A stretch of 64,000 bases of DNA. Source: Eubacteriales bacterium. GTDB lineage: Bacteria > Bacillota > Clostridia > Oscillospirales > CAG-272. How positions within the stretch are numbered: the stretch's first letter is position 1; every line of letters begins with the position of its first letter. The stretch is taken from the NCBI GenBank assembly GCA_045543375.1, contig JAZQMI010000119.1, positions 5,236-69,235 of the forward strand, given 5' to 3'. Under the pieces are notes generated by a model. That model made no database searches. It worked only from the letters and a program-made list of their open reading frames with translations, and had not been told where the DNA came from. This document shows, piece by piece, positions 49,359 to 64,000 of the stretch. The translations under genes were made by a program, and so were the position numbers.

Positions 49359-50276
49359 TTATTGTTTATCGAATCCGATACGGCGCTGTGTCGAGGTACG
49401 CATCATGGTGCGCATACGCTCGGCATCGCCACTTGCCAATGCGTTACGCATGGCGCCAAATCGCTCGGCGAACAGATCCATTTGTTCGAGCAGCGCGTCG
49501 CGATTGGACAGAAAAAGTTCCGTCCACATGGTGTCGTTAATTTTCGCAATTCGTGTCAGATCACGGAAGGAATCTCCCGTCAGCCTTGCCAAACGAGCGA
49601 GGTCGGTATGGGAATCTTGCTCTCTTCCCTCTCCTGCGCAACACATCAGCGATACCGCGATGGCGTGTGTCAACTGCGATAAGTAAGCAATCATTCGGTC
49701 GTGCTCTTCGATCGAGAGTCGTGTGATACGACCGAAGCCCAACAGACGACCGAGCTGCTCACACACAAGAATAGCTTCAGACGTATTTTTCAAGGTGGGA
49801 ACGACCAGATAATTGGCATCTCGGAACATATCGGGTGTGGCGGCGCGGTAAACATCAAGCGCGCCATTGCCCATGAGTTCCTTTCCCGCCATCGGGTGCG
49901 CCGAAATAAACTCAACGCCCGGTGGAAGTAAGTTTTGCACCTCATCGACCACGCAGCCCTTGACACCCGTAACATCGGTCAACAAAGTGCCCTCGTGTAT
50001 CAAATGACCGTTTTGCTTGATCCATTCAACCATAACGGCGGGATACAAGCCAAATATAATAATGTCAGCTTGCCCGATCAATTGCGCATTGACCTGCGTG
50101 TCGCCCTCGGCAATTGTACCGTCAGCCAATGCTGCGTCGACAACCTCTCGCGAAAGCGTAATGCCCAACACGCGATACCCCTTTTGCGCGAGCGCTTTAG
50201 CATAGGCGGTGCCTATCAGGCCCATGCCTACGATCAGAACTGTACAATCGGGGATCAGCTTTGGAAATCGTTTCAT
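49359..50276 (-). CDS. tyrA: prephenate dehydrogenase
   Basis: IVGMGLIGTAYA Rossmann motif and a HPMAG block. Start at ATG 50276 with AAAGGAGAG upstream. It is the first gene of the aro operon. Confidence 0.9.
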   Translation of the reverse strand: MKRFPKLIPDCTVLIVGMGLIGTAYAKALAQKGYRVLGITLSREVVDAALADGTIAEGDTQVNAQLIGQADIIIFGLYPAVMVEWIKQNGHLIHEGTLLTDVTGVKGCVVDEVQNLLPPGVEFISAHPMAGKELMGNGALDVYRAATPDMFRDANYLVVPTLKNTSEAILVCEQLGRLLGFGRITRLSIEEHDRMIAYLSQLTHAIAVSLMCCAGEGREQDSHTDLARLARLTGDSFRDLTRIAKINDTMWTELFLSNRDALLEQMDLFAERFGAMRNALASGDAERMRTMMRTSTQRRIGFDKQ

Positions 50277-50299
50277 TTTCAACTCTCCTTTGACATAAA

Positions 50300-50337
50300 T
50301 ATCAAAAGAGCGGTTTTGCACGTGCAAAACCGCTCCT
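50300..50337 (-). terminator. intrinsic terminator (candidate attenuator) in the aro operon leader
   Basis: Perfect palindromic stem GAGCGGTTTTGCAC/GTGCAAAACCGCTC (50308-50335) followed on the minus strand by TTTTGATATTT. Its stem ends about 19 nt before the tyrA ribosome-binding site. Confidence 0.85.
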
Positions 50338-50369
50338 TATCATCTTCTCTTGATGTGGAATGCAAACAC

Positions 50370-50597
50370 TTATGCGCTCATTGCTGCATAAGAAGTTTTT
50401 GTTTTGCGCGGCATATAAAATTGGTTCAAATAAAATCGATAGGTGCAATACGAATAATAGGCATACGCAAAAAAGGACACTGCATAGGCAGTATCCGCAT
50501 AGTTATCATTGGTGCTGACAATTCCGGCAACGCGCGCAGACAAAGCCGACGAATCCGTCGGTTCTACGTTCAGCATACGGCTAGCATTGCTTTGCAT
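50370..50597 (-). CDS. 75-codon Tyr/Phe-rich upstream ORF (candidate leader peptide for attenuation control)
   Basis: Internal ATG 50597 of the track ORF 50370..50771, preceded by GAAAGGTG. The peptide is MQSNASRMLNVEPTDSSALSARVAGIVSTNDNYADTAYAVSFFAYAYYSYCTYRFYLNQFYMPRKTKTSYAAMSA, with 10 Tyr, 4 Phe and no Trp. Confidence 0.5.
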   Translation of the reverse strand: MQSNASRMLNVEPTDSSALSARVAGIVSTNDNYADTAYAVSFFAYAYYSYCTYRFYLNQFYMPRKTKTSYAAMSA

Positions 50598-50633
50598 AAC
50601 GGTCAAACACCTTTCTTGTGAAACTATGAAAAT

Positions 50634-50662
50634 AGTATACACGATTTCTTTCGTTTTTTCAA
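50634..50662 (-). promoter_or_regulatory. promoter (TTGAAA-17-TATACT) for the leader ORF and aro operon
   Basis: On the minus strand TTGAAA is at 50662-50657 and TATACT at 50639-50634, with a 17-nt spacer. Confidence 0.65.
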
Positions 50663-50889
50663 TAGTAATATACACCAAAATAGCAAGAACGAAATGTAAT
50701 ATTTTGTTGTTTTTCACTATTTTCTTGACGCAGTAAATTTTGCACGTGTTTGAATTGGTCAAAATATCCAATTTTCCATTTCAAAAGCAAGCAAAAGTAC
50801 CAAACTTATCTTAGCTTTGGCAAATCCCCTTTTCAAATGATGAAATTTATGCTACAATAATAGCAATGAAAGAAAAGGAGGCTATTCCC

Positions 50890-51312
50890 ATGGCTATCAA
50901 AATGCGCGTGCTTTACGCGACCAGCAAAAAGAAAATGATCAATATTGCAAATTACATCAAGCAGAAATACGAGCTCACCCAGAATTCTGTGGACTGTGTT
51001 CCCCCTGCTTATTCCTGCGACAAAGAGCGCATCGTTGTTTTGGCATGCGCCGGTAAGAACGACGTTGAAGATGCTCTGCGCCGTTTCTGCATCGAGCTGA
51101 CCAAGGATCGCGCTGCCAACGTAGCGCTCCTGATCGACGGTACGCCGACGTATGCCGACAATATCAAGGCAATTTTGAAGAACGCCGGTACCAACGTGCT
51201 TGAGGACGTGATGTACATCAAGTGCGGTCTGTTCGGCTCGGCTGTCAAGCCCGAAGAACAGGCGGCAATCGTTGATTGGCTGGATAACAAGGTCATTTGC
51301 AATTTGAAGTAA
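50890..51312 (+). CDS. hypothetical protein (flavodoxin-like fold suspected only)
   Basis: ATG 50890 preceded by AAAGGAGG; about 140 aa. No family was confidently recognised. Confidence 0.6.
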   Translation: MAIKMRVLYATSKKKMINIANYIKQKYELTQNSVDCVPPAYSCDKERIVVLACAGKNDVEDALRRFCIELTKDRAANVALLIDGTPTYADNIKAILKNAGTNVLEDVMYIKCGLFGSAVKPEEQAAIVDWLDNKVICNLK

Positions 51313-51317
51313 TGAAG

Positions 51318-51349
51318 AGGTACGGAAGAATTCCCTTCCGTACCTTTTA
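51318..51349. terminator. intrinsic terminator
   Basis: AGGTACGGAAG / CTTCCGTACCT stem with a 6-nt loop, followed by TTTTAC. Confidence 0.8.
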
Positions 51350-51351
51350 CT

Positions 51352-51725
51352 TTATAACGTTACGTCAAAATATAAAATCGTGTGTCTGTTATGCTCAACC
51401 ACCAACCGAATGTGTCCGTCCTCATAAAAGCCGTCGGAATAATGATACGTTCCCGGAAAATCCGTCAATCTTATTTTACTTGCCCAGCTATTCATATCAT
51501 CGTCTGAAATCCAAAGCTCAAGTGGATAACGCCTCGTTTGGCTGGGTGTATGCAGAGGAGAGTGCTGACGCGGGATCAAGGTTCTTCCGTCGGTCGTCTG
51601 TATTGCTGCGCGGATGAAAGTGAATTCGGAAAAGAACGGAGGATGGCCTCCCCATGTAAAACCGTTGTCTTTGCCATGGAGAACATGCACTCTGTTTTCA
51701 TCACACGGCTCTCGAGTACCGTCAC
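51352..51725 (-). pseudogene. 3' remnant of a BNR/Asp-box (sialidase-like beta-propeller) gene
   Basis: The reading frame opens just after an in-frame TAA (51726-51728) and has no plausible start or ribosome-binding site. It contains Asp-box-like KDNGFTW and SDDDMNSW and only about 125 codons, whereas such proteins normally have more than 330 aa. Confidence 0.6.
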
Positions 51726-51853
51726 ATTAGCATACGCACAAAAGCTCTCCGTTTGCTACTCGCCCCATCAGCAACTCGCAAGCGAGTGTGCTGGTGTGGA
51801 TCTCTTTTTGATCGTTATCTGTTTTTCCATTTTTTTATCTCATTTCAAAGCGA

Positions 51854-51890
51854 AACGGACAACGCCATATACAAAATGGCGTTGTCCGTT
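51854..51890 (-). terminator. hairpin terminator downstream of prs
   Basis: 15-bp stem AACGGACAACGCCAT / ATGGCGTTGTCCGTT. The U-tract on the minus strand is weak (TTCGCTTTG). Confidence 0.6.
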
Positions 51891-51898
51891 ACTGCGTA

Positions 51899-53065
51899 TC
51901 AGTTCGTCTTCTTATCGTTCAGATTTGCCTTGTGCTTATCCAGCAGCGTATGGATGCGCTTGACGGGATCGAGCAGACCGCTGATGGTGCGGTCGTGGTT
52001 GAGCGTGTCAATCAGGTAGGCCACGTACTTGCACATGTTGACCTCGCAGTACCAAGGCTTGTCGGTCAGGCCGGGGCGATGGTAGACCAGGTTGGTCGTA
52101 AAGATCTTATCAATCACGCCGTCCTCGTATGCCTTATCAAACTTATCAAATCCCTCGGTAAACAGACCAAAGGTGGCAAAGTTGAAGATGCGCTTGGCAC
52201 CCTTTTCCTTGAGCTGAAGTGCTACGTCAATGAGCGATTCGCCGGATGCGATCATGTCATCAACGATGATCACGTCCTTACCCTTAACGCTTCTGCCAAG
52301 ATACTCGTGAGCCTCGATGGGGTTACGTCCGTTGATGACAACCGAATAGTTGCGGCGCTTGTAGAACATACCGATATCCAGACCCAGCACCGAAGAATAG
52401 TACATCGAGCGCTGCATAGCTCCCTCGTCGGGCGAGATCATCATCAGATGCTCCTTTTCGAGCTCGATGTCGGGATAGGCACGGACTAGTGCCTTGATCA
52501 TCTGATAGGTGGGCATGATATTGTCAAAACCGTTAAGAGGCACAGCATTGCAAATACGGGCATCGTGAGCATCGAAGGTCAGGATATCGGATACGCCCAT
52601 ATGAACAAGCTCTTGCAGCATCAATGCACAGTCAAGCGACTCGCGAGAAGAACGCTTGTGCTGACGGCCCTCATAGAGCATGGGCATAATGACAGTAATG
52701 CGTCTTGCCTTGCCGGCGATCGCTGCGATGATGCGCTTCAGATCGGCATAATGATCGTCGGGACTCATAGGAATCGTCTGTCCGTACATTTTATAGGTCA
52801 CGCCGTAATTGAAGATGTCACAGATGATATAGACGTCGTTACCGCGCATGGAGGAATAAAGCATTCCCTTTGCTTCGCCCGTTCCGAAACGGGGACAATC
52901 AACGCGGGCGAGATAGGTTTCTTCACTATCGTGTCTGCGCCATTCTCTCAGATAATAATCGACTTGTTTGGCAAACTCCTCGCATCCCTTCATGCAAATG
53001 ACGCTTAACTGTGCATATACTTCTTCCTTCATAACGCGTGCCCTCTCTTCGTCATATATTGTCAC
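51899..53065 (-). CDS. prs: ribose-phosphate pyrophosphokinase (long form)
   Basis: The PRPP-binding loop VIIVDDMIASGESL and the flexible-loop region ...YEGRQHKR... are present, with overall Prs layout. It has longer N- and C-terminal extensions than canonical Prs. Confidence 0.8.
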   Translation of the reverse strand: MTIYDEERARVMKEEVYAQLSVICMKGCEEFAKQVDYYLREWRRHDSEETYLARVDCPRFGTGEAKGMLYSSMRGNDVYIICDIFNYGVTYKMYGQTIPMSPDDHYADLKRIIAAIAGKARRITVIMPMLYEGRQHKRSSRESLDCALMLQELVHMGVSDILTFDAHDARICNAVPLNGFDNIMPTYQMIKALVRAYPDIELEKEHLMMISPDEGAMQRSMYYSSVLGLDIGMFYKRRNYSVVINGRNPIEAHEYLGRSVKGKDVIIVDDMIASGESLIDVALQLKEKGAKRIFNFATFGLFTEGFDKFDKAYEDGVIDKIFTTNLVYHRPGLTDKPWYCEVNMCKYVAYLIDTLNHDRTISGLLDPVKRIHTLLDKHKANLNDKKTN

Positions 53066-53142
53066 GTATTCTCGGACTGTGCCGATCTTTACCTGACAAT
53101 TATATCATACCTTACCTGAAAAGTAAATACCTTCTTGAAAAT

Positions 53143-53385
53143 TTATTTCATATCTTCAAGTATATCATCGAGCGTGCACGGCGTGACCTTGCCGCGTCGG
53201 ATCATTTGATATAATTCGAATGCCCGTTTGCGATTCTGACACGGAAGTCGTCTGATGCTTTGTTCTTTCCCGAACCGGACTTGAACATAATATACCCATT
53301 CTCCGTCGTTCATCTTCATGTGCAAAAGACGGTAACGCACCGTACGCGAGTGCGTGGGTTTTAGCGTGAGATTTAAGGTTGTCAT
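53143..53385 (-). CDS. hypothetical small protein (80 aa)
   Basis: ATG preceded by AGGAGAA, with a TGTTATAAT extended -10 box upstream. No family was recognised. Confidence 0.55.
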   Translation of the reverse strand: MTTLNLTLKPTHSRTVRYRLLHMKMNDGEWVYYVQVRFGKEQSIRRLPCQNRKRAFELYQMIRRGKVTPCTLDDILEDMK

Positions 53386-53796
53386 AGTTTTCTCCTATTG
53401 CTGAAAAAGTGGTTGGCGTGGGGGGATACGCCGCAAAACTATTATAACACAAGTTCTATTGCTGCTTTTTTGTACCTTTACCGACCGTTTTTGTTCGTTT
53501 TGCTGCATAAATTCGGCAAAATAACGTATCAAAGGTTCGACGGGAAACAACAACGCCCATCATACTCCTATCATTCGACAAAATACCACGCGTATTTTTC
53601 GCCTTCGTTCACCAATTGTTTACATTTGGGGCTGTTATTCCTCGTCGTGCGCGGCTGCTTTTTCATGCCGTTCCAATATTTGATGTGTGGACTTTTCTTG
53701 CTGTATATGGTATAATTGAATTAAGATATCGGACGGTTCGCAAAAAAAGTGTTTAAAAAATTTTTTCTTGTAAAAATAACGAAGGCGGTATACATA

Positions 53797-54057
53797 ATGA
53801 CAAAAATTCTCGAATATTTTCGTGCACTCCGACACATCAGCGACATTTCTGCTCTGGTTTTGAAATCGGGTATGTTTTTCGTTTGTCTGCAGGCGGCGGT
53901 CTTGACCATCGAGGTCCACGATATGATACAGCACAATCCTCTCCTCGTCCCACTATACTATCCCCCGTTGCTCGAATACGTGGCGCTACCCTTTGTGATC
54001 GTTGTAGCAGGTGCGCTTTTGTTCGACGCTTTGGAAAGAGAAAAAGCAGACCGCTGA
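53797..54057 (+). CDS. hypothetical small membrane protein (86 aa, two TM helices)
   Basis: Internal ATG 53797 of the track ORF 53749..54057, with GAAGGCGG upstream. It has two hydrophobic segments. Confidence 0.45.
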   Translation: MTKILEYFRALRHISDISALVLKSGMFFVCLQAAVLTIEVHDMIQHNPLLVPLYYPPLLEYVALPFVIVVAGALLFDALEREKADR

Positions 54058-54076
54058 AGCGGTCTGCTTTTTTATT
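54042..54076. terminator. bidirectional intrinsic terminator closing the helicase operon
   Basis: AAGCAGACCGC / GCGGTCTGCTT stem with a TGAA loop, flanked by AAAAA and TTTTTT. Confidence 0.88.
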
Positions 54077-56364
54077 TATTCTTCCATTTCCCACTGCATC
54101 ACGCGTTCGACGAGCTCGTCTGCGCGCAGGCGATCGGTTGCATAGGCGCGGCGCAGCAGCTCAACGGGGATACAGTCGTCATACTTTTCGAACACGGGAA
54201 TTTCACCGTGCTCAACCAAAGACATGCAGTCAATTCCCTCTCCCCTTACCTTGTCGGCAAGACGCCCAAGCCATGCGCGCGAATCGGGCTCGGTCATTTT
54301 GAAGGTCATATAGTTACACCCCTCAAACTCGATTGAGGACACCCCAAGCTCGCTTGCATGCTGCTTCAGATACTTTCGGCAGGTGCGGAACGAGCGCGTG
54401 CCAAGCCAAGGGAATAAGCACCAGCTATAGCCTCCAAGGTGCACAAGCGAATGGCGAAGCATGCCTGTGTTTCTCGCCACGTGACGGGCGTTTTCAAGGC
54501 GCTCGCGCGCATTTTCCATGAGATAAGGATAAACGGTATCCTCCTCCAGAACGCGGCGCATACGCTCAAGGATCTTGGTGTGGATCTCGCCGTAGTCGCC
54601 CGGCCAGGAAACCTCCATTTTACCGAGCACACTTTTGACGTAGATCAGCTTATGCGCAATATCAAGCTCCTCGACCTCCCACACGCGCCCTGCCAGCGCA
54701 AAACGGTCGCCCACGGGCGGCGGCGTGGTGATGGTACCGATCTCGTCCGAGCCGCAGCGGACAGTATAATCCTCGCTGTCCTTGAAGACGGCGTAAAACT
54801 TGAAGCTTTTGATCAGGCGCTCCCCGCGCAAGCCCACGATAAGACCCTTTTCCTCTGCCATTTCCAAGTACTCTTGCTGTACCATGGAAACGAGCAGCGT
54901 GCGATAATCCTCTTTGCTGACGGCGCTGAACGGCGGCAGCGTAAGAATTCGTTCAGCCAGGCGTTTCGGGGACAGTTCGCCCGATGCGGCGAGCATGCTC
55001 AGCGTTTGGTGGAATAAAAGGCTCATGGGCATCTGTCTGATGCTTGGCGGCTCGATGAAGCGTTCCTCAATATAAAGCTGAATAATAGCGATCGCACGCA
55101 AAAGCTCCCACGGGATCAGTTGCGGCAGCGGTGTGTTAGGCAGCGCATCCTCCTCACGGAAGACCATCATCATCTCGGGCGGCTGCCCGCGGCGTCCCGA
55201 GCGACCAAGACGCTGCAAAAAGGACGAAACCGAGGTCGGCGCTTGACTTTGCAGCACACGCTCCAGCCGTCCGATATCAATGCCGAGCTCCATGGTGACC
55301 GTTGCGCAGGTGACCGCCATACGCTCCTCGTCCTTCATGCTCATCTCGGCCTCCTCGCGAATGGCGGCCGACAGATTTCCGTGGTGAATAAGGAATACGT
55401 CGGGCTCGCCGCGCGCGGCGGCGATCTGACGGAAGGTGGCCGTCAGATATTCCGTTTCCTCGCGAGAATTGGAAAATACGAGGGACTTGCAATCCTTGAC
55501 ACAGTCATACATATATTCATAGCCTGCATCAAGCTTAGCCACGGCATCGGGAGATTTCACCTTGCCCTCGGCTGCCTGCTTCATCTGTTGCGCGGGACGG
55601 TTGACAGCATCGTGCGTCTGGTTCGCTTTGGCATTCTGAATATAAAAATGTTCCAGTCCAAGTCGCCAACGGATCGTCCCTTGCGAAAATACGGGAACGT
55701 CCACCTCGATCAGAGAGCCTCCTGCTAACCATGCGGCGGCAAGTCCCGCATCACCGACCGTTGCAGAAAGTCCGATGCGGCGCGGCTCATGACCGATAAG
55801 GCGCGACAGTCGTGTCATCTGACAAATGATCTGATTTCCTCGATCACTGCCAGTCAGGGTATGAATCTCGTCTACGACGATATAGCGTAAATCAGAAAAC
55901 AATCGCACGATATCGTTGGAACGGTTCATGAGCATGGATTCAAGCGATTCGGGCGTGATCTGCAAAATCCCTTTAGGATTTTCGAGCAGCTTGCGCTTGT
56001 GCGAGGCGGCGACGTCGCCGTGCCAATGCGTGACAGCGATGCCCGTCTGTTCAAGCAACTCATCCATACGGGAAAACTGATCGTTGATCAAGCTTTTGAG
56101 CGGTGCGATATATAGGGCTCCGATACTGTGCGGAGGATTCTCCCACAAATCGGCAAGAATGGGAAAAAAGACTGCTTCGGTCTTGCCGCTGGCCGTCGAT
56201 GAAGTCAACAGCAAATGGTGATCGCTGTCAAACAGCGTTCGCGCCGCCGCGATCTGCACGGCGCGCAAAGAATCCCATGAGTGTCGATAAATAAATTCGC
56301 GAATAAAGTCGGGGAACCGCTCGAAAATCAGCTCAGCTTCCCTTCCGACGTCAAGCTCTTGCAT
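54076..56364 (-). CDS. sngC: SF2 DEAD/DEAH-box helicase, Lhr/BrxHI-like (Shango SngC-like)
   Basis: 762 aa with motif I TASGKTEA, motif II VVDEIH, motif III LSATVGD, motif VI QRLGRSGRRG and a long C-terminal extension. The symbol is assigned by operon context only. Confidence 0.8.
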   Translation of the reverse strand: MQELDVGREAELIFERFPDFIREFIYRHSWDSLRAVQIAAARTLFDSDHHLLLTSSTASGKTEAVFFPILADLWENPPHSIGALYIAPLKSLINDQFSRMDELLEQTGIAVTHWHGDVAASHKRKLLENPKGILQITPESLESMLMNRSNDIVRLFSDLRYIVVDEIHTLTGSDRGNQIICQMTRLSRLIGHEPRRIGLSATVGDAGLAAAWLAGGSLIEVDVPVFSQGTIRWRLGLEHFYIQNAKANQTHDAVNRPAQQMKQAAEGKVKSPDAVAKLDAGYEYMYDCVKDCKSLVFSNSREETEYLTATFRQIAAARGEPDVFLIHHGNLSAAIREEAEMSMKDEERMAVTCATVTMELGIDIGRLERVLQSQAPTSVSSFLQRLGRSGRRGQPPEMMMVFREEDALPNTPLPQLIPWELLRAIAIIQLYIEERFIEPPSIRQMPMSLLFHQTLSMLAASGELSPKRLAERILTLPPFSAVSKEDYRTLLVSMVQQEYLEMAEEKGLIVGLRGERLIKSFKFYAVFKDSEDYTVRCGSDEIGTITTPPPVGDRFALAGRVWEVEELDIAHKLIYVKSVLGKMEVSWPGDYGEIHTKILERMRRVLEEDTVYPYLMENARERLENARHVARNTGMLRHSLVHLGGYSWCLFPWLGTRSFRTCRKYLKQHASELGVSSIEFEGCNYMTFKMTEPDSRAWLGRLADKVRGEGIDCMSLVEHGEIPVFEKYDDCIPVELLRRAYATDRLRADELVERVMQWEMEE

Positions 56365-56388
56365 CAGGATACCTCCTTTGCCCGTTGA

Positions 56389-57795
56389 TCAAAATTCAAT
56401 GTCCTGCGGTCTGAAATTGATCTTGGCAGAACCGTTCGCCGCTTGTGCGGCCAGATGTTCAACCTCTTGCTCCTCCTCAATCTGCTGATCCGTTTTGAGC
56501 GTAACGGCGCTGCCGATCACGTCCTCAAAGCGCGCGTCGGCGTTTTGCATCAGAATGTGCAGAACAGTCATATAGTCACGCAGCATTTCACGCGGCGTGA
56601 TCATGCTGTCCGCGCCCGCACGGGATAGACACAGCTTCAAAAAGCTTTGCATCTGCTCCATGGTGATGCGCGGCTCCCAGTCGTAGCACTGGGCGTGCAG
56701 ATGTGTGATACGCACGATCAAGGCCAGCAATTCGTCGTCACTCAAGCGGCGCAGACGAATGACGGGGCCAATCAGATTCTTATAGCCCTCGGCAGAAAAA
56801 CGACTGTCGCAAAGACGGCTGCGCAGCGCCTCATAGCTGAACAGCCCTCGACGGTTGTCCTCAAGGAATTGAGGAGTACCGCCCAGAATCAGTTCAAGTC
56901 CGGGAGCGCGTCCTTGCAGCGTATCGTTGAACATCGAAAGGATCTTCTCATAATTGTTCTCACGGCTGATTCGATGTGCGATCTTGTAAAGGTTGACGCA
57001 TTCGTCGATAAAGACGACCAGCCCGCGATACCCCATCAGGCGAACGAGTGCCGCCCAGAGCTTAAGAAAATCGTACCAGTTATCATCGTCAATCACAACA
57101 GATACGGCAAAACCAAGTGCTGCGCGTGCCTCCGTCTTGTTGGCGAATTCGCCGCGCAGCCAACGAAGGCAGGCACTCTTTTTCTGCTCGGCGGCCCATT
57201 CGTCCTGCTCGTTCCACGCTTCAAAATATGCCGTGATGACCTTGGAAAAGTCAAAGCCGCCAACGAAAAATTCCATTTCGCGCAGCTTTTCAAAAACCAG
57301 AGATCGAAGCCGCGCACTGAAATTCGGTGCATCGGGCGTAATACCCTCCTCCATCAACTCGGATTGCAGCGCGGTCAGCCAGCGCGCAAGAATTTTCGGC
57401 AGCGCGGCACCGTCGGGTGAAGATTTGGAGGCGAGATTTTTCATCAGTTCGCGGTAGGTTGCCACACCGCTGCCACCGCTGCCGTAAAGGCGGCGTTCGG
57501 GTGACAGATCGGCGTCAGCCGTTACGAAATCGCGCTCAAGCGCATAACCGCGAACGAGCTGCATCAGAAAGCTTTTGCCGCTACCGTAGCGACCGATGAG
57601 AAAGCGCATGCCGCCTCCTCCCTCACTGACCGATTCCAGATCGGTCAGAAATGCGCCGATCTCATCGTTGCGACCGATGGCGATATAAGGCGCACCCGCG
57701 CGCGGTACGACACCGGCAGACACGGACGAGAGCAGCGAGCTCAATATACGCTTTGGAACGCGTTGCAGCGTGGAATTGTTTTGAGATTCAGTCAT
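56389..57795 (-). CDS. sngB: P-loop ATPase of the DUF2791 / BrxD type (Shango SngB-like)
   Basis: 468 aa with Walker A GRYGSGKSF and Walker B LVVFIDE. The overall layout recalls BREX BrxD / DUF2791 proteins. The family call is from memory. Confidence 0.7.
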   Translation of the reverse strand: MTESQNNSTLQRVPKRILSSLLSSVSAGVVPRAGAPYIAIGRNDEIGAFLTDLESVSEGGGGMRFLIGRYGSGKSFLMQLVRGYALERDFVTADADLSPERRLYGSGGSGVATYRELMKNLASKSSPDGAALPKILARWLTALQSELMEEGITPDAPNFSARLRSLVFEKLREMEFFVGGFDFSKVITAYFEAWNEQDEWAAEQKKSACLRWLRGEFANKTEARAALGFAVSVVIDDDNWYDFLKLWAALVRLMGYRGLVVFIDECVNLYKIAHRISRENNYEKILSMFNDTLQGRAPGLELILGGTPQFLEDNRRGLFSYEALRSRLCDSRFSAEGYKNLIGPVIRLRRLSDDELLALIVRITHLHAQCYDWEPRITMEQMQSFLKLCLSRAGADSMITPREMLRDYMTVLHILMQNADARFEDVIGSAVTLKTDQQIEEEQEVEHLAAQAANGSAKINFRPQDIEF

Positions 57796-57810
57796 GTGAC
57801 GTGCTCCTCC

Positions 57811-58608
57811 TTACCATTTGTGACCGCAATGATGATACGGTGTACCGACAAATCCGATTTGAGTGAAATCCTCGGGGTTGTGGCGAATGATATAGTCGAT
57901 ATAAGAGGCAAACATTTTGGCCGTGATGAGATATCCCGCCGCGTTGAGATGCCCGCCCAGATAGAAGTGTTTGCGGAACTCCTCGTCATAGACGGGACCG
58001 TATTTGCCGAGATCAATCACGTAGGTGTATTCAAAGAGTGCCGCGATCTCGTGCATAAGTTCTCCGTGACGGACGGTATGCGCAGTTCTTTGCGCGTCCG
58101 CTCCCCCCTCGCGAGGGCGACCGACGAGAAAAATGCGCGCTTTGGGCTGCATTTGCTTGAGCTTGCACAAAATGCGTCCCAAATATCCGGCATAAGTGTT
58201 GGCATTATTTTCGGGATGCTCAAGGTCAATATCATTGACACTGCCTGTTTCGATCTGCTTGGCATCGTTGACACCGAGCGCAACAATATACGCCTGGCAA
58301 GCATTCTCCGCCTTCCAGCAGCCGCATTCCTCGCCGTAGCTGTCCCAAAACCACTTGGCGGTCATGCCTCCGCGTGAAAAATTGATGGCACGGCTGCCTG
58401 ACATTCGAGCCAGATACTGTCCCCAGGAATATTCGTAATAGTCGTGAAAGCCTCTGTTACCGTCCTCATCGAGCGATTCGTGCTCGCCTGAGGCAAGACT
58501 GTCGCCAATACAGCCGATGGTGCGGAAGATGGCACAAAAGCCACCGTCGCTGACCATGCGGTCAAGCGGCTTTTCGTTTATATCTGAATAAAATTCACGG
58601 ATGTTCAT
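57811..58608 (-). CDS. SGNH/GDSL-family hydrolase (esterase)
   Basis: Block I IGDSLASG, block II-like FSRGG, block III GVND and block V GGHLN are present. The preferred start is ATG 58608 with GAGGTG upstream; the track start 58659 would overlap the upstream gene by 41 nt. Confidence 0.8.
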   Translation of the reverse strand: MNIREFYSDINEKPLDRMVSDGGFCAIFRTIGCIGDSLASGEHESLDEDGNRGFHDYYEYSWGQYLARMSGSRAINFSRGGMTAKWFWDSYGEECGCWKAENACQAYIVALGVNDAKQIETGSVNDIDLEHPENNANTYAGYLGRILCKLKQMQPKARIFLVGRPREGGADAQRTAHTVRHGELMHEIAALFEYTYVIDLGKYGPVYDEEFRKHFYLGGHLNAAGYLITAKMFASYIDYIIRHNPEDFTQIGFVGTPYHHCGHKW

Positions 58609-58618
58609 TCTCTTCACC

Positions 58619-60286
58619 TCACGGATTGTTTTGAAAGGCATCTTGGATTTGCTGCTCATAATCCTCTATCAGGACGTATCCTCCGCCGTCACCCTCTTGC
58701 AAAATGATATCGCCGAAGGCGTCTGCCGCTACTTCGTTGATACGCTCGGCCAGGGCGTCGATCAGCACGCCTTGGCTGCGTGCAATATCACGTTGTTTGG
58801 CAGCGTTAGCATCGCATACGGCGGCAAGAAATTCGCGGTAGGGCTGCAATGCGTCCGTCCAGTCATCGCCTCGTTCAAAGGCTTGGGGCGGCTGCTGCGG
58901 CACTTGAATTTTCAGCTCAACTACCGGTGTGCTGTCCTCGAACGCCTCAATCAACTGCTCGGTAACCGACCAGGACGAGCGCTCGATCTCGGCGGCATGC
59001 TCGGGCGACAGCTCGGTGGTAGGAAGATCGTATAGTGCCTCATAATCAGGGCGTTGTACTTGCTGAAATGCGGAGCTTTTGTGCGAAGGCAATGCTTGCA
59101 TAAAGTATTCATCAAGAACAGTCTTGATCTCGTCGGGCAAGCCGTAGATGGTAAGCTTTGATTTGCTGCCAAAATAGGCGCGCAGCTTATTTTCCGAATA
59201 CTTGAGAATATCGGTGATCAGAAAACGCAGCTCGTGTGAACGTGTAAACGAGCAGTAGTCCACCTCAATGCGTCGCTTCATGTCCGCCGAACACAACGCG
59301 CCGATGAAGGTATCCCGACTGAGCGTCGCCTTTTGCATTTTGGTGGTTGAAAAAGCAATCTGCTTTTGTTCAAGCATGCGTAAAACGGCGGAAAAGGCGC
59401 GTGGAATATGCCTGTCCATCATTTTCTTTTGCTCGTCATTTGCCCGATAGGCCTTACTTTTTCGATAATCGTAATTGGAGCAAAACAGCATATAGACGTC
59501 CGCATCGTGCAACGTATCGTCCCCTGACGGACAAGCGTAAAACTCGCGAAACGAGCTGCTCTCGGTGATCAGTCGCAGATCGTTTGACAAGACATCAATA
59601 GGCGGCGGTAGCTGATGGATCAAGCTGTAATCACAGATCCAGTCCGCCAGATAGCGGTTGAGCAGCGGATAGGTGCTGCGATAATTTTTCCAGATTTCAC
59701 AAAGCGATCGCTGTCCTTCGATCGGCGGAATTTGCTTGGGAAGATTGATGATCTCAAACAAATACAAGAAAATATAGCTATAATCCGTTGGCAGGTAGAT
59801 GCCTGCTCGGGCATTGTCACGCCAGTAGAGATACCACGACAACTGCGCGCGATTCATCTGATCGTATTGCGGCATATAGGAAAAGAACGGCACACTTGGG
59901 CACTCTTTTCCTTTGACGGGAAACATACGTTCTGCCGTGGCGCAAAAGCGCTCGTAAAAGCGAAAGCTCGAACGCCAGCGATACACTCTGATCTCGCGAA
60001 GGAGCGGATGATTGGGAGCGTATACCAGATTCGGCTCGATAGGAGCCCCTTCTGACAGTTCGGTCGGTTCGGAAATATTACGAACCTGCGAGGGCTTGAT
60101 CGGTGCGTCGCTGACCGTGCGTGGATTAGAGGCGGACGGAGGTGCAATTTTGATCTCAACTGCTTCGATTTGCTTTTTCGGAGAGGCGGGGCGAGGCGCA
60201 TTGACAGACTTGGACTTGGGAAGCAGTTGATCAATGTCCCAAAACTCGTCCAATTCTCTGGCACGCTTGTCATTGAAATCACTCAT
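58619..60286 (-). CDS. sngA: TerB-N / TerB-C domain protein (Shango SngA-like)
   Basis: 555 aa. A low-complexity N-terminus is followed by the block ...VPFFSYMPQYDQMNRAQLSWYLYWR.... The acidic C-terminus ...LIDALAERINEVAADAFGDIILQEGDGGGYVLIEDY resembles TerB_N and TerB_C as I remember them. No central TerB four-helix domain is obvious. Confidence 0.6.
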   Translation of the reverse strand: MSDFNDKRARELDEFWDIDQLLPKSKSVNAPRPASPKKQIEAVEIKIAPPSASNPRTVSDAPIKPSQVRNISEPTELSEGAPIEPNLVYAPNHPLLREIRVYRWRSSFRFYERFCATAERMFPVKGKECPSVPFFSYMPQYDQMNRAQLSWYLYWRDNARAGIYLPTDYSYIFLYLFEIINLPKQIPPIEGQRSLCEIWKNYRSTYPLLNRYLADWICDYSLIHQLPPPIDVLSNDLRLITESSSFREFYACPSGDDTLHDADVYMLFCSNYDYRKSKAYRANDEQKKMMDRHIPRAFSAVLRMLEQKQIAFSTTKMQKATLSRDTFIGALCSADMKRRIEVDYCSFTRSHELRFLITDILKYSENKLRAYFGSKSKLTIYGLPDEIKTVLDEYFMQALPSHKSSAFQQVQRPDYEALYDLPTTELSPEHAAEIERSSWSVTEQLIEAFEDSTPVVELKIQVPQQPPQAFERGDDWTDALQPYREFLAAVCDANAAKQRDIARSQGVLIDALAERINEVAADAFGDIILQEGDGGGYVLIEDYEQQIQDAFQNNP

Positions 60287-60319
60287 TTCGGCATCCTCCT
60301 TTCCATTTGGTATCTATAT

Positions 60320-60348
60320 ATTATATCATGCATTTTTTGTCTTGTCAA
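60320..60348 (-). promoter_or_regulatory. consensus sigma-A promoter (TTGACA-17-TATAAT) for the four-gene operon
   Basis: On the minus strand TTGACA is at 60348-60343 and TATAAT at 60325-60320, with a 17-nt spacer. It lies about 30 nt upstream of the GGAGG ribosome-binding site. Confidence 0.75.
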
Positions 60349-60443
60349 TCCGCTTATCATGAATTATGAGTATTTATCTTGACAATTGATGTCATTCCTG
60401 CTATAATTTTTCTATCAAAGTTCTGTATAAGGAGAAAACCATC

Positions 60444-61208
60444 ATGAAAATCACCTTTTTAGGCACAGACACTTGTATTCCCGGTGTTGGAAACGATACC
60501 GCAAGCTATTTGATCAACGACGAGCTTTTGGTAGACGTTGGTTGGAACGTGACGGGAAATCTGCGCCAGGTCGGCGTTGAGGTTTCGTCCGTTCATCATC
60601 TGCTCTTTACGCACATGCACCACGACCACATGATCTCCTTTCCCTCTCTTATCTTCCATTGGACACAGCTGCCTCCCGGCCGTGATGTCAGCCCTCTGAC
60701 CATCTACGGGCCTGACGAAACGCTGGAGCGCGCATTTGAGGGTGTGCTCGCCTTTTTGCAGGCGGATCGTTTTTGGCCCAATCTGAAGAAGCCTACGCTC
60801 ATTCCGCTCAAGGCGCAGGACGAATTCGAAACGGATACACTTCGCATCACCTGCATTCCCAGCGACCACGCCGTTCCGGGGCGCTGCTATCGCATCGTTG
60901 ACAAGCGTGACGGCAAGGTGCTTTGCATGAGCGGCGATACGGCTTACGGTCCTACGCTTGCGCCCTTTTTTAAGGATTGCGATCTGCTCATCCACGAGTT
61001 TTCGGGCGGCATGAGTGAGGTGCGCGGCCTTCCCAGTAAGCACAGTAATGCGATGGATGCCGCAACGGTAGCCAAGGAGGCGAATGCCAAAAAGCTGGCC
61101 ATCGTGCACGGTCCGCTTCACGTTCGTGAAAAGTGTCTGGAGGCTGTCGCCAAGATATACGACGGCGAGCTGATCAGACCGGAACCCCGTATGAGTATTG
61201 AAATTTAA
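60444..61208 (+). CDS. MBL-fold metallo-hydrolase (RNase Z-like)
   Basis: HMHHDH (HxHxDH) motif. A TTGACA-17-TATAAT promoter lies at about 60379-60407. Confidence 0.85.
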   Translation: MKITFLGTDTCIPGVGNDTASYLINDELLVDVGWNVTGNLRQVGVEVSSVHHLLFTHMHHDHMISFPSLIFHWTQLPPGRDVSPLTIYGPDETLERAFEGVLAFLQADRFWPNLKKPTLIPLKAQDEFETDTLRITCIPSDHAVPGRCYRIVDKRDGKVLCMSGDTAYGPTLAPFFKDCDLLIHEFSGGMSEVRGLPSKHSNAMDAATVAKEANAKKLAIVHGPLHVREKCLEAVAKIYDGELIRPEPRMSIEI

Positions 61209-61211
61209 GTC

Positions 61212-61270
61212 GAAAACGACACGGAAATCAGAGATTTTTTTCTTTCCCTCTTGAAATCCGTGTCGTTTTT
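61212..61270 (+). terminator. long-loop hairpin terminator
   Basis: 14-bp stem GAAAACGACACGGA / TCCGTGTCGTTTTC with a loop of about 31 nt, ending in a T run. Confidence 0.55.
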
Positions 61271-61311
61271 CTATATAATATAATCAGCAAGCCAAGAAAC
61301 GAGGTGCATTT

Positions 61312-61566
61312 ATGGATCATTTGCATTCCAACGAACAAATCCCGTCCCCCGAGCAGGCACTTGAAAGCGTCTATTTAGCACTGCAACAAAAGGGTTATAA
61401 TCCCGTCATGCAGATCGTCGGCTATCTGCTGACCGAGGACCCAACCTATATCACCAATCACGAGGGTGCGCGAGCGCTGATCGGTCGCATTGACCGCGAC
61501 GAGCTGCTCAACGAGATCGTACGCTTTTATTTCGAGCAAAAGCATCCCGCGTCCTCGGAGGATTGA
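61312..61566 (+). CDS. ireB: IreB-family regulatory phosphoprotein (UPF0297)
   Basis: 84 aa with the ...GYNPV.QIVGYLL..DP.YIT.H..AR..I...DRDE..E.. pattern typical of IreB/DUF965. Confidence 0.88.
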
Positions 61567-62516
61567 CCGTGCAGCCATTCATTCGTATATATGACCTGCG
61601 CCGAGGAGAATTCTGTGATTTGCCCGATGCGCATTTCGTGCTGGCACTCGGCAATTTTGACGGCGTTCACGCAGCACATATGTCGCTGCTGTTGCGTGCC
61701 GCTCGTCTGGCGCAAGGGTACGGCTTAAAAAGCGCCGCGTGGTGCTTTGACCCGCCGTCTTCTGCCATTCTTCTGCCTTCTCAAAAGCAACTGTGCACAC
61801 TGCAAGAAAAGCTGTCGCTGCTTTCAAATTGCGGACTGGATTACGTATTCTTGGCTGATTTCACAAGCTTGCGCCATCTTTCTCCTTCCGAGTTTATTCT
61901 TGACGTACTGCAAAAGCAGGCGCACGCCGTACGCATCGTCTGCGGCTTTCACTTTCATTTCGGCAAGGGCGGGGTCGGTGATACAACGTTGCTTCAACGG
62001 TTTTTCGGGACCGATTGTGTCGACATTATCCCGCCCGTTTGTATTCCCCTGGGAGGACAGACAGCGGTTATTAGTTCAAGTGCCGTGCGCGCCTCGTTAA
62101 CACAAGGAAATGCTTCGGACGCCGCACGACTATTGGGACGTCCTTACAGCTTGACAGCCCCCGTCGTTCACGGCAAGGCACTCGGTCGCACGCTGGGCTT
62201 CCCTACCGTTAATCAGCAAGTCCCCACAGAAAAATTGATGCCAAAGCAAGGCATTTATGCCACTTGTGTCGATGTGGGCGACGAAGCTTACTTTGGCGTG
62301 ACCAATGTTGGCGTCCGCCCGACGGTCGACGCGGGTGACTCGCTTATCAACTGCGAAACGCACATTCTGGACCTGAATCGCGACTTATACGGACAGACGG
62401 TAACGGTTAAATTCATGCACCGCCTTCGTGACGAGCAGCGTTTTGATTCACTCGATGAGTTGCAGTCTGCGATATCGCAGGACATCGAACATACAAAAGC
62501 ATATTTTGAAAAGTGA
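61563..62516 (+). CDS. ribF: bifunctional riboflavin kinase / FMN adenylyltransferase
   Basis: [10 protein letters not shown] motif with a C-terminal riboflavin kinase domain (G..LG.PT.N, ..THILD). The true start may be GTG 61569, which has GGAGG 8 nt upstream. Confidence 0.9.
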
Positions 62517-62545
62517 GTGTTTGATCTGCCAAACACTCACTTTTC
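62512..62545 (+). terminator. intrinsic terminator after ribF
   Basis: AGTGAGTGTTT / AAACACTCACT stem followed by TTTT. Confidence 0.8.
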
Positions 62546-62619
62546 GTATCGTTACGCCCGAACAACTCCTTGATACGCGCATATTCTGTTACAGAACATG
62601 CACCAAGGAGGATTGCTAT

Positions 62620-63084
62620 ATGAATATCAACAGGCAAAATGCTATGAGCGGCACGGGCTATCTGCTTGTACGCGTCAGCACGGCACAGGGGGCGATTCCC
62701 GTACAAGGAGCAAAGGTGACCGTGCGGGATAACCTCGGTATGGAGGTGCCGGGCTCCAAGGGCTCGGTCATTACCGTCATGACAACCGACCGTGACGGCA
62801 GAACCGAACGTGTGGCACTCGCCGCACCGCCCAAGGGCGATGGATTGTCGCCGGGCGGATCTATCCCGTACGCCACCTACAACATTGACGTAGAAGCTCC
62901 CGGATATTATCGTCAGTTTTTCCATGCCGTTCCCGTCTACGATACCATTACGTCTATCCAGCCTGCGCTGCTCGTCCCAATTGCACAAAGCGGCAATCAA
63001 GACGGAATATCAAGCGACGATACAAATTTTGACTCGTTTGTCAATCCCGCATTGCGCCCACGCAATCAACAGCAAGAGAGGTGA
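62620..63084 (+). CDS. sleC: SleC-like spore cortex-lytic enzyme, N-terminal pre/pro-region as a separate 154-aa ORF
   Basis: ATG 62620 with AAGGAGG upstream. GYLLVRVSTAQGAIPVQGAKVTV... parallels the N-terminal beta-sandwich region of clostridial SleC. It ends at TGA 63082-63084, in frame with the next ORF. Confidence 0.65.
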   Translation: MNINRQNAMSGTGYLLVRVSTAQGAIPVQGAKVTVRDNLGMEVPGSKGSVITVMTTDRDGRTERVALAAPPKGDGLSPGGSIPYATYNIDVEAPGYYRQFFHAVPVYDTITSIQPALLVPIAQSGNQDGISSDDTNFDSFVNPALRPRNQQQER

Positions 63085-63090
63085 CAGAAA

Positions 63091-64000
63091 TTGAATTTTT
63101 CCGCCAATCTTCCCTTCATTCCCGATCGCATTACCGTTCATTTGGGAGCACCAAATAACAGCAGTGCCCCGAACGTGACGCTGCCTTTTATTGATTACAT
63201 TAAAAACGTTGCGTCCAGCGAGATCTATCCCACCTGGCCCGAAGCCGCCTTGCGCGCCAACATATTTGCCCAGATATCCTTTGCCCTCAACCGCATCTAT
63301 ACCGAATATTACCGTTCGCGCGGCTATCCCTTTGACATTACTTCCTCAACGGCGTACGATCAGTATTTTGTCAACGGTCGCGATATTTTTGAAAATATTT
63401 CTCAAATTGTGGATGATATTTTTGATTCTTATCTGCGCCGTCCCGGCAGCGTTGAACCGTTGTTTGCGCAATATTGCGACGGTATCAACGTGACCTGCCC
63501 CGGTGGACTTTCGCAATGGGGGAGCGTCGATCTCGCCGAGGCAGGGCTTGTTCCCTATGAGATTTTGCAACGTTATTACGGCGATGATCTGGAAATCGTT
63601 CGCAACGTGCCCGTCGGCAGCTTTGAAGCCTCTGCGCCACCCGTAGCACTGCGCCTCGGCTCATCAAGTGACGACGTCAGAACGGTGCAGATCCGCCTCA
63701 ACCGCATTTCTGACAATTACCCATCCATTCCCAAGATCGTTGCCGTAGACGGTATTTTTTTGGAGGACACGCAAGCTGCGGTCGAGCAGTTCCAGCGCAT
63801 CTTCGATCTGACGCCCGACGGCATTGTGGGACCCTCCACCTGGTATGCCATTGAGCGCATCTACAACAGCGTCAAGCGGCTCAACGAGCTCAACTCGGAA
63901 GGGCTATCTCTTGAAGAAGTGACCAATCAATATCCCGAGGTGCTTCGGCTGGGCTCGACGGGCATTGGCGTGAGCAATCTGCAATATTTTATCGACTATC
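63091..64000 (+). CDS. sleC: SleC-like spore cortex-lytic enzyme, catalytic domain plus peptidoglycan-binding repeats (3' end beyond window)
   Basis: Absent from the ORF track because it runs off the right edge. A TTG at 63091 is preceded by GAGAGGTG. My translation ...SSAPNVTLPFIDYIKNVASSEIYPTWPEAALRANI...YCDG...QWGS... is collinear with clostridial SleC. It is followed by PG_binding_1-like repeats (GSSSDDVRTVQIRLN...DGIVGPSTW). Confidence 0.75.
   Translation, partial: MNFSANLPFIPDRITVHLGAPNNSSAPNVTLPFIDYIKNVASSEIYPTWPEAALRANIFAQISFALNRIYTEYYRSRGYPFDITSSTAYDQYFVNGRDIFENISQIVDDIFDSYLRRPGSVEPLFAQYCDGINVTCPGGLSQWGSVDLAEAGLVPYEILQRYYGDDLEIVRNVPVGSFEASAPPVALRLGSSSDDVRTVQIRLNRISDNYPSIPKIVAVDGIFLEDTQAAVEQFQRIFDLTPDGIVGPSTWYAIERIYNSVKRLNELNSEGLSLEEVTNQYPEVLRLGSTGIGVSNLQYFIDY

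Follow-up and report, generated by a model that had tools for sequence, protein, structure and literature searches.

Shango is an anti-phage defense system of three genes, encoding a TerB-like protein, an ATPase and a helicase, with modest anti-phage activity in Escherichia coli and Pseudomonas aeruginosa (Millman et al. 2022; Johnson et al. 2023). No mechanism has been reported for Shango. Membrane surveillance via TerB has been proposed in the Shango literature, which credits Anantharaman, Iyer and Aravind (2012) as the source of the TerB phage-defense hypothesis. We analyzed a Shango-like operon in a 64,000-nucleotide stretch of contig JAZQMI010000119.1 (positions 5,236 to 69,235 of the forward strand; assembly GCA_045543375.1) from an uncultured gut Eubacteriales bacterium of the CAG-272 lineage in the Clostridia, hereafter the window. 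An earlier note on this DNA had proposed that the operon is a functional four-gene variant of Shango with an SGNH-family esterase as an additional component. As in the Shango of E. coli and P. aeruginosa PA14, the window operon encodes all three Sng proteins with the gene order unchanged; it differs from these systems in carrying an esterase gene between sngA and sngB. The four-gene arrangement with the SGNH gene is real, and no description of it was found in the literature. Comparison with related loci suggests that the esterase gene probably entered a canonical sngABC operon once, from a housekeeping family, and is co-transcribed with it as a passenger, and argues only weakly for a functional four-gene variant. 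Thus, what is known here is Shango itself, and what this locus adds is a lineage-restricted gene insertion.

Pfam and PADLOC profile searches placed the proteins in the families that had been anticipated for them: TerB-N/TerB-C for gene 1, DUF2791/BrxD for gene 3 and an Lhr/BrxHI-type helicase for gene 4. SngA, the presumed sensor (58619-60286, minus strand; 555 amino acids), matched Pfam TerB_N (E = 2.6e-20) and TerB_C (E = 1.2e-7), and matched the PADLOC SngA model (E = 9.9e-57) over profile positions 66-525 of 528. The TerB domain proper (PF05099) was not reported in SngA by the Pfam search at E <= 0.01, which found TerB_N and TerB_C only. SngB (56389-57795, minus strand; 468 amino acids) is a P-loop ATPase that matched BrxC_BrxD (PF10923, formerly DUF2791; E = 1.5e-151) and PADLOC SngB (E = 4e-164, 545 bits, versus 3.6e-47 and 160 bits for BrxD). 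SngC (54076-56364, minus strand; 762 amino acids) is a superfamily 2 (SF2) DEAD/DEAH helicase of the BrxHI/Lhr-like group, with matches to Pfam DEAD (E = 3e-28), Helicase_C (E = 1e-13) and, weakly, WH_Lhr, and to PADLOC SngC (E = 2e-237, 789 bits, versus 1.2e-124 and 415 bits for BrxHI). In PADLOC, each of these proteins matched its own Sng model best, and the matches spanned almost the entire profile. The order A-B-C on one strand was interrupted only by the 798-bp esterase gene between sngA and sngB. Collectively, these profile matches make it near certain that the cassette is Shango, in agreement with its earlier designation as Shango-like; the system was already known and is detected by existing PADLOC models. 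A unit of a TerB-N/TerB-C protein, an ATPase and a helicase was reportedly predicted computationally by Anantharaman, Iyer and Aravind in 2012.

The cassette was also compared with related systems. Homologs of SngB and SngC occur in bacteriophage exclusion (BREX) systems as BrxD and BrxHI, and SngC, BrxHI, DruE and DpdJ form one helicase clade, but the BrxD and BrxHI models scored far below the Sng models. The NCBIfam BREX_BrxD equivalog reached 156 bits with SngB, under its 350-bit cut-off. Unlike BREX, the window cassette includes a TerB_N/TerB_C protein, and the BREX core genes (PglX, PglZ, BrxA/B/C) were absent among its five nearest flanking open reading frames (ORFs), which are ribF, ireB, a metallo-beta-lactamase (MBL)-fold gene, prs and a DUF6514 ORF. 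The window shares the TerB_N and TerB_C domains with Ter (tellurite resistance) systems; PF05099 was not reported in SngA, and terZ/A/C/D/E genes were absent among the neighbors examined, which are housekeeping genes. Window SngB is ~40% identical to that of enterobacterial plasmid Shango. Protection against phages has been shown only for the Shango systems of E. coli and P. aeruginosa and is predicted for the clostridial version.

The four ORFs of the operon (54076-60286) are tightly spaced and co-directional on the minus strand, at the coordinates given in the earlier note, and all motifs quoted there (GDSLASG, GVND, GGHLN, GRYGSGKSF, VVFIDE, ASGKTEA, DEIH, SAT and QRLGRSGRRG) were readable in the translations. 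The predicted operon driver is a sigma-70/SigA-type promoter, TTGACA-17-TATAAT (60348..60320, minus strand), which matched the consensus at 12/12 positions and carried an extended -10 TG. An AGGAGG lies 8 nt 5' of the sngA ATG, and the intergenic spacers of 10, 15 and 24 nt each contain a Shine-Dalgarno sequence. At the other end, the expected strong bidirectional terminator was found as an intrinsic hairpin at 54040-54073, 3 nt past the sngC stop codon, with flanking A and T runs that would allow termination in both directions. On the minus-strand RNA this hairpin had a folding energy of -22.6 kcal/mol (z = -5.96; none of 200 shuffles was equally good) and was followed by UUUUUCUCUUU. A consensus terminator scan called the hairpin only on the plus strand, because the greedy stem swallowed the U-run. 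The promoter, terminator, short spacers and ribosome-binding sites together predict that the four genes form a single mRNA.

The fourth gene (57811-58608, minus strand) encodes a predicted cytoplasmic SGNH/GDSL hydrolase of 265 amino acids. The mechanical ORF call reached 58659; the true start was placed at the ATG at 58608 because a GAGGTG ribosome-binding site, which overlaps the sngA stop codon, is found there and all 48 aligned homologs begin at that residue. Its recognition as an SGNH hydrolase was borne out by Pfam Lipase_GDSL_2 (E = 6.4e-13; 50 bits against a 32.9-bit cut-off) and by the conserved blocks, in which S37 (GDS), G80/G81, G112/N114 (GxND) and H220 were invariant across a family alignment of 49 sequences. 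The block V DxxH Asp was absent throughout the subfamily, stand-alone members included, and the motif reads LGGH. Inspection of the alignment revealed no obvious N-terminal signal sequence. The AlphaFold2 model of the protein was confident, with a predicted local distance difference test (pLDDT) score of 94.2 and a predicted template-modeling score of 0.92.

When the esterase model was searched against the PDB with Foldseek, 114 matches were obtained at E <= 0.001, and nearly all of the 50 best were SGNH esterases. The best matches (8ik1, 7e16, 1fxw, 6lfc, 4jj6/3w7v and 2wao; probability 1.00) comprised EstL5, a Geobacillus GDSL esterase, platelet-activating factor acetylhydrolase, TesA, Axe2 and CE2, and they establish the fold without identifying a substrate. 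The window esterase shares its fold, GDS serine, block II glycine, GxND block, catalytic histidine and lack of an obvious signal sequence with intracellular SGNH esterases such as the Geobacillus acetyl-xylooligosaccharide esterase Axe2, EstL5, E. coli TesA and CE2; it differs in lacking, with its subfamily, the DxxH Asp. Because its identities to the Foldseek matches were 13-22% and template-modeling scores normalized to the query were ~0.5, the protein was assigned to a distinct, uncharacterized subfamily. A sequence search of the PDB returned a single weak match, the generic GDSL protein 4q7q (E = 0.0024), and neither PADLOC nor NCBIfam contained a matching model. Consistent with the earlier statement that an SGNH esterase is undescribed as a Shango component, Shango is defined as three genes, and among the papers listed by a literature search none named both SGNH and Shango.

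The distribution of the esterase was determined from an SngB scan that, at one genome per species, yielded 80 loci (SngB 69-87% identical), all in Clostridia/Oscillospiraceae-type gut metagenome-assembled genomes, which were probed by tblastn with the four window proteins. The sngA-sngB-sngC unit was found in essentially all 80. The sngA-sngB junction was intact in 76 species-level loci, of which one (L008) has the esterase; in the other 75, sngA directly abuts sngB, with a median gap of 39 nt between aligned regions. Four distant plasmid Shango loci, from Paenibacillus, Yoonia, Klebsiella and Salmonella, were all three-gene units lacking the esterase. Searching metagenome contigs with the esterase yielded a single locus, at 52% identity, which was uninformative. 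Neither the rest of the window nor the ~8 kb around each of the 80 loci contained a second esterase homolog. Thus, the neighborhood survey proposed in the earlier note did not show an SGNH gene conserved at the same position in related cassettes: it occurs in 1 of 76, from a single capture and with no independent acquisition.

Within the same 80 species-level loci, SngA was 32-59% identical, compared with 66-88% for SngB and SngC, which makes sngA the fastest-evolving gene of the cassette. This rapid divergence fits SngA being the phage-facing component.

The history of the insertion was examined in a neighbor-joining tree of SngB plus SngC (1,173 columns, 500 bootstraps). The esterase is confined to an 11-member Shango clade with 100% bootstrap support and two subclades at 90% each, and it is absent from 5 of the 11 members. 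In subclade 1 (the window, L001, L101, L008, L100 and L009) all members except L009 carry it; in subclade 2 (L004, L010, L011, L012 and L013) it is present only in L004, which is sister to L012/L013 with 83% bootstrap support. The esterase-bearing loci (the window, L001, L101, L008, L100 and L004) were monophyletic in 0/500 replicates, as were the esterase-less loci. On this tree, the simplest history would be one gain of the esterase, with clean loss of the gene three or more times thereafter (L009, L010/11 and L012/13). The esterase-less loci keep sngABC intact, with a sngA-sngB spacer of 21-64 nt that contains a ribosome-binding site. Because the gene is absent from some members of the clade under either a loss or a recombination history, the esterase is optional. 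SngA of the esterase-less L009 was 59% identical to window SngA, compared with 52-61% for the esterase-bearing loci; since L009 SngA is about as close as those of the loci with the gene, no SngA subtype tracks the esterase.

The esterase belongs to a family of ~4,800 homologs, including hundreds of ~265-amino-acid proteins of gut Clostridia that are 57-61% identical to it. Every homolog of at least 65% identity with readable context sits between sngA and sngB, as observed for L001-L003 (protein P0005), L004 (P0006), L008 (P0003), L100 (P0002) and L101-L102 (P0007). A further cassette copy, P0009 (65% identity), lies on the 1-kb contigs L098 and L099, flanked by the SngA C-terminus and, in L098, by the SngB N-terminus as well. 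By contrast, all four homologs inspected at 57-61% identity were stand-alone genes, three of which adjoin carbohydrate genes: one follows galactokinase (GalK) and a second GDSL gene (L005), one follows a GtaA-like glycosidase gene (L089), and the start of a third overlaps the end of a SASA carbohydrate-esterase gene (L091). The fourth is surrounded by unrelated genes (L093). By neighbor joining, the cassette esterases formed one clade (97% bootstrap) nested within the stand-alone clostridial family. Since they are monophyletic within that family, a single capture is indicated. The mean distance between cassette and stand-alone esterases was 0.39, compared with 0.36 among stand-alone members. 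Because this difference reveals no rate acceleration and the cassette esterases keep all 51 family-invariant residues, no sign of new function was seen. The earlier note had also raised the option that the SGNH gene is a passenger insertion whose closest homologs are ordinary stand-alone esterases and which related cassettes never carry. That option largely stood, as the nearest homologs outside one narrow clade (57-61% identity) are stand-alone, but related cassettes are not wholly without the gene.

A recent horizontal insertion of the esterase was also considered. It was ruled out by the GC content of the gene (0.53-0.54), which is even across the four cassette genes, and by the divergence of its copies to 65-90% identity.

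Sister cassettes carry other inserted genes. Of the 71 sister cassettes whose sngB-sngC junction is intact, 11 have unrelated, co-directional genes inserted there: an EutH gene (L029), a PHP phosphoesterase gene (L033), a GH39-like glycosidase gene (L035, L038 and L066), and small-protein arrays, some of them Gmx_para_CXXCG-like and possibly of immunity type (L045, L056, L060, L064, L076 and L087). Given these inserts, the junctions of Shango, which in these gut Clostridia would be a well-expressed core operon with a constitutive promoter, accept unrelated, mostly metabolic genes, and since they do so repeatedly, embedding in a defense operon is by itself insufficient for a gene to be called a defense component.

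The chromosomal setting of the cassette was conserved. All clade loci with readable flanks occupy a common site, with ribF-ireB upstream and/or prs downstream, and the ribF-ireB synteny persists where SngB is only ~70% identical. Because the clade loci share this site, the inheritance of Shango here appears to be mainly vertical. The window operon thus differs from known Shango in lying at a core site, ribF-ireB / prs, and not in a defense hotspot or on a plasmid. To judge from gene order, Shango in these Clostridia would be core-like and unusually vertical for a defense system, and it does not lie in a defense island. This setting covers window 51899-62516, L001, L004, L008-L015, L039, L054, L055 and L063, among others.

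The evidence thus favors, with some confidence, a passenger esterase that was captured once and has since been expressed from the operon, and several observations weigh against that interpretation. The gene is intact and of full length in at least eight diverged lineages (65-90% identity), although synonymous divergence (dS) between the esterase-bearing loci is saturated (>1.3 and often not computable). Its ratio of nonsynonymous to synonymous divergence (dN/dS) was 0.08-0.15 in the measurable pairs, many others being saturated in dS; its dN of 0.12-0.23 fell between those of SngB/SngC (0.09-0.15) and SngA (0.36-0.46). Its position is constant, with short spacers or, in L004, an ATGA overlap with the sngA stop codon. 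Recombination among cassettes may mimic multiple losses in trees built by neighbor joining only, and accessory genes of defense systems also come and go, so that repeated loss is no proof of irrelevance. A stand-alone paralog in cassette-bearing genomes may lie beyond the window and the ~8-kb flanks that were scanned. Finally, a role for the esterase in Shango may be conceived on first principles. These features indicate an esterase that is probably functional and stably expressed from the operon, which does not imply that it works with Shango. They also make it very improbable that the ORF is degenerating or encodes a pseudo-enzyme with no activity, as might be suggested by the missing block V Asp: the same Asp is missing family-wide, in stand-alone members too, whereas no variation occurs at Ser37, Gly80/81, Asn114 and His220, all lineages have a full-length ORF, dN/dS is 0.08-0.15 in the measurable pairs, and the structure is modeled with confidence (pLDDT 94). 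On the strength of the invariant catalytic residues, we rejected this explanation.

The same features can be read as signs of a genuine, lineage-specific fourth component of Shango, which might process an acylated or nucleotide-linked ligand sensed by SngA or tune activation. The gene is translationally coupled and lies between the presumed sensor and the ATPase, all copies of at least 65% identity with readable context are in Shango cassettes and form one clade, purifying selection has acted across saturated dS, and a NUDIX-SGNH fusion in the family hints at a nucleotide-linked substrate. We nevertheless consider a fourth component unlikely, since the gene is absent from 75 of 76 related cassettes, from the distant plasmid loci and, within its clade, from 5 of the 11 loci, and in that clade the bearing loci never group together (0/500). 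In addition, the protein bears no sequence sign of new function, SngA types do not match its presence or absence, other cassettes carry plainly metabolic passengers, PADLOC has no model that matches it, and no paper among the literature results listed names both SGNH and Shango. On the same grounds, the claim of a functional four-gene variant was not supported. Nor was the proposal that the esterase couples TerB-type envelope sensing to the ATPase and helicase, because no TerB domain proper was reported in SngA and no obvious signal sequence was seen on the esterase. It is likewise doubtful that the captured esterase has been co-opted as an optional accessory whose substrate, an acylated small molecule that may be nucleotide-linked, would feed into sensing by SngA. 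A different challenge concerns the operon as a whole, which could be a vertically inherited housekeeping DNA-processing module, not primarily immune, with inserts that reflect a well-expressed core operon. The conserved core site, with synteny even at ~70% SngB identity, and the 66-88% identity of SngB and SngC across 80 species-level genomes would fit such a module. However, it is improbable given the very high Shango-model scores (SngB 545 bits, SngC 789 bits), the fast evolution of SngA (32-59% identity) expected of an arms-race sensor, the protection of E. coli and P. aeruginosa against phages by homologous three-gene units, and the loss or splitting of sngC in several loci, a patchiness typical of defense genes.

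Under the passenger interpretation, the ancestor of the clade would have captured one widespread clostridial cytoplasmic SGNH esterase between sngA and sngB, and the gene would since then have shared the transcript of the operon and been coupled to it in translation. The esterase would likely keep its ancestral job, perhaps removing acyl groups from a small substrate in the cytoplasm, which is probably an acetylated sugar or oligosaccharide, and would use the operon for expression without being a Shango subunit. SngA, as a fast-evolving TerB_N/TerB_C protein, may serve as an infection sensor or adaptor that engages the BrxD-like ATPase SngB and the BrxHI-like SF2 helicase SngC, a putative motor acting on phage DNA. 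Shango is widespread, and its mechanism would become accessible to biochemistry through a genuine enzymatic accessory; if the esterase were such an accessory, it would be the first enzymatic clue to what Shango senses or signals with. The value of the locus is mainly as a caution for defense-system discovery and as a cheaply testable case.

The NUDIX-SGNH fusion is a 445-amino-acid protein (P0075) encoded on two independent metagenome contigs (L103, 181-1518; L104, 427-1764). The identity between its esterase half and the esterase of the window is 57%. The domain pairing hints that the esterase family may act on nucleotide-linked substrates.

Further departures from the three-gene layout were seen among the related loci. 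Small-protein arrays turn up repeatedly, in six species-level loci, and as candidate accessories they could be of more interest than the esterase. Two loci outside the 11 of 71 also carried additional genes: a NAGPA lipoprotein gene adjoins a split sngC in L018, and an EutH gene follows sngB in L024, in which no sngC was detectable in the available sequence. In L028, L041 and L082, sngA and sngB were present with no sngC within 5 kb downstream, and in L041 a valyl-tRNA synthetase gene follows sngB. The loci without sngC suggest occasional decay or rearrangement of the cassette. On the Yoonia vestfoldensis plasmid pSMR4r-1 (L095), an IS3 transposase splits sngA into a TerB_N ORF and a TerB_C ORF, and after the Shango locus come a DUF4297 'anti-phage-associated' gene and a further gene for an ATPase.

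Rfam at the gathering threshold gave no match in window 50000-64000. Between prs and the Shango terminator lies an AT-rich stretch (53000-54040; GC 0.42-0.43) that contains the 80-amino-acid DUF6514 ORF (53143-53385, minus strand); the equivalent stretch of L001 contains three small ORFs with no assigned function. On the other side of the operon, the MBL-fold (Lactamase_B_2) gene (60379-61208, plus strand) is oriented away from the Shango promoter and is served by a separate one, a perfect TTGACA-17-TATAAT at 60379-60407. For its L001 ortholog, the precomputed Pfam matches include PF23023 Anti-Pycsar_Apyc1, a cyclic-nucleotide phosphodiesterase fold. This MBL-fold gene was found only beside the cassettes of the window, L001-L003 and L008.

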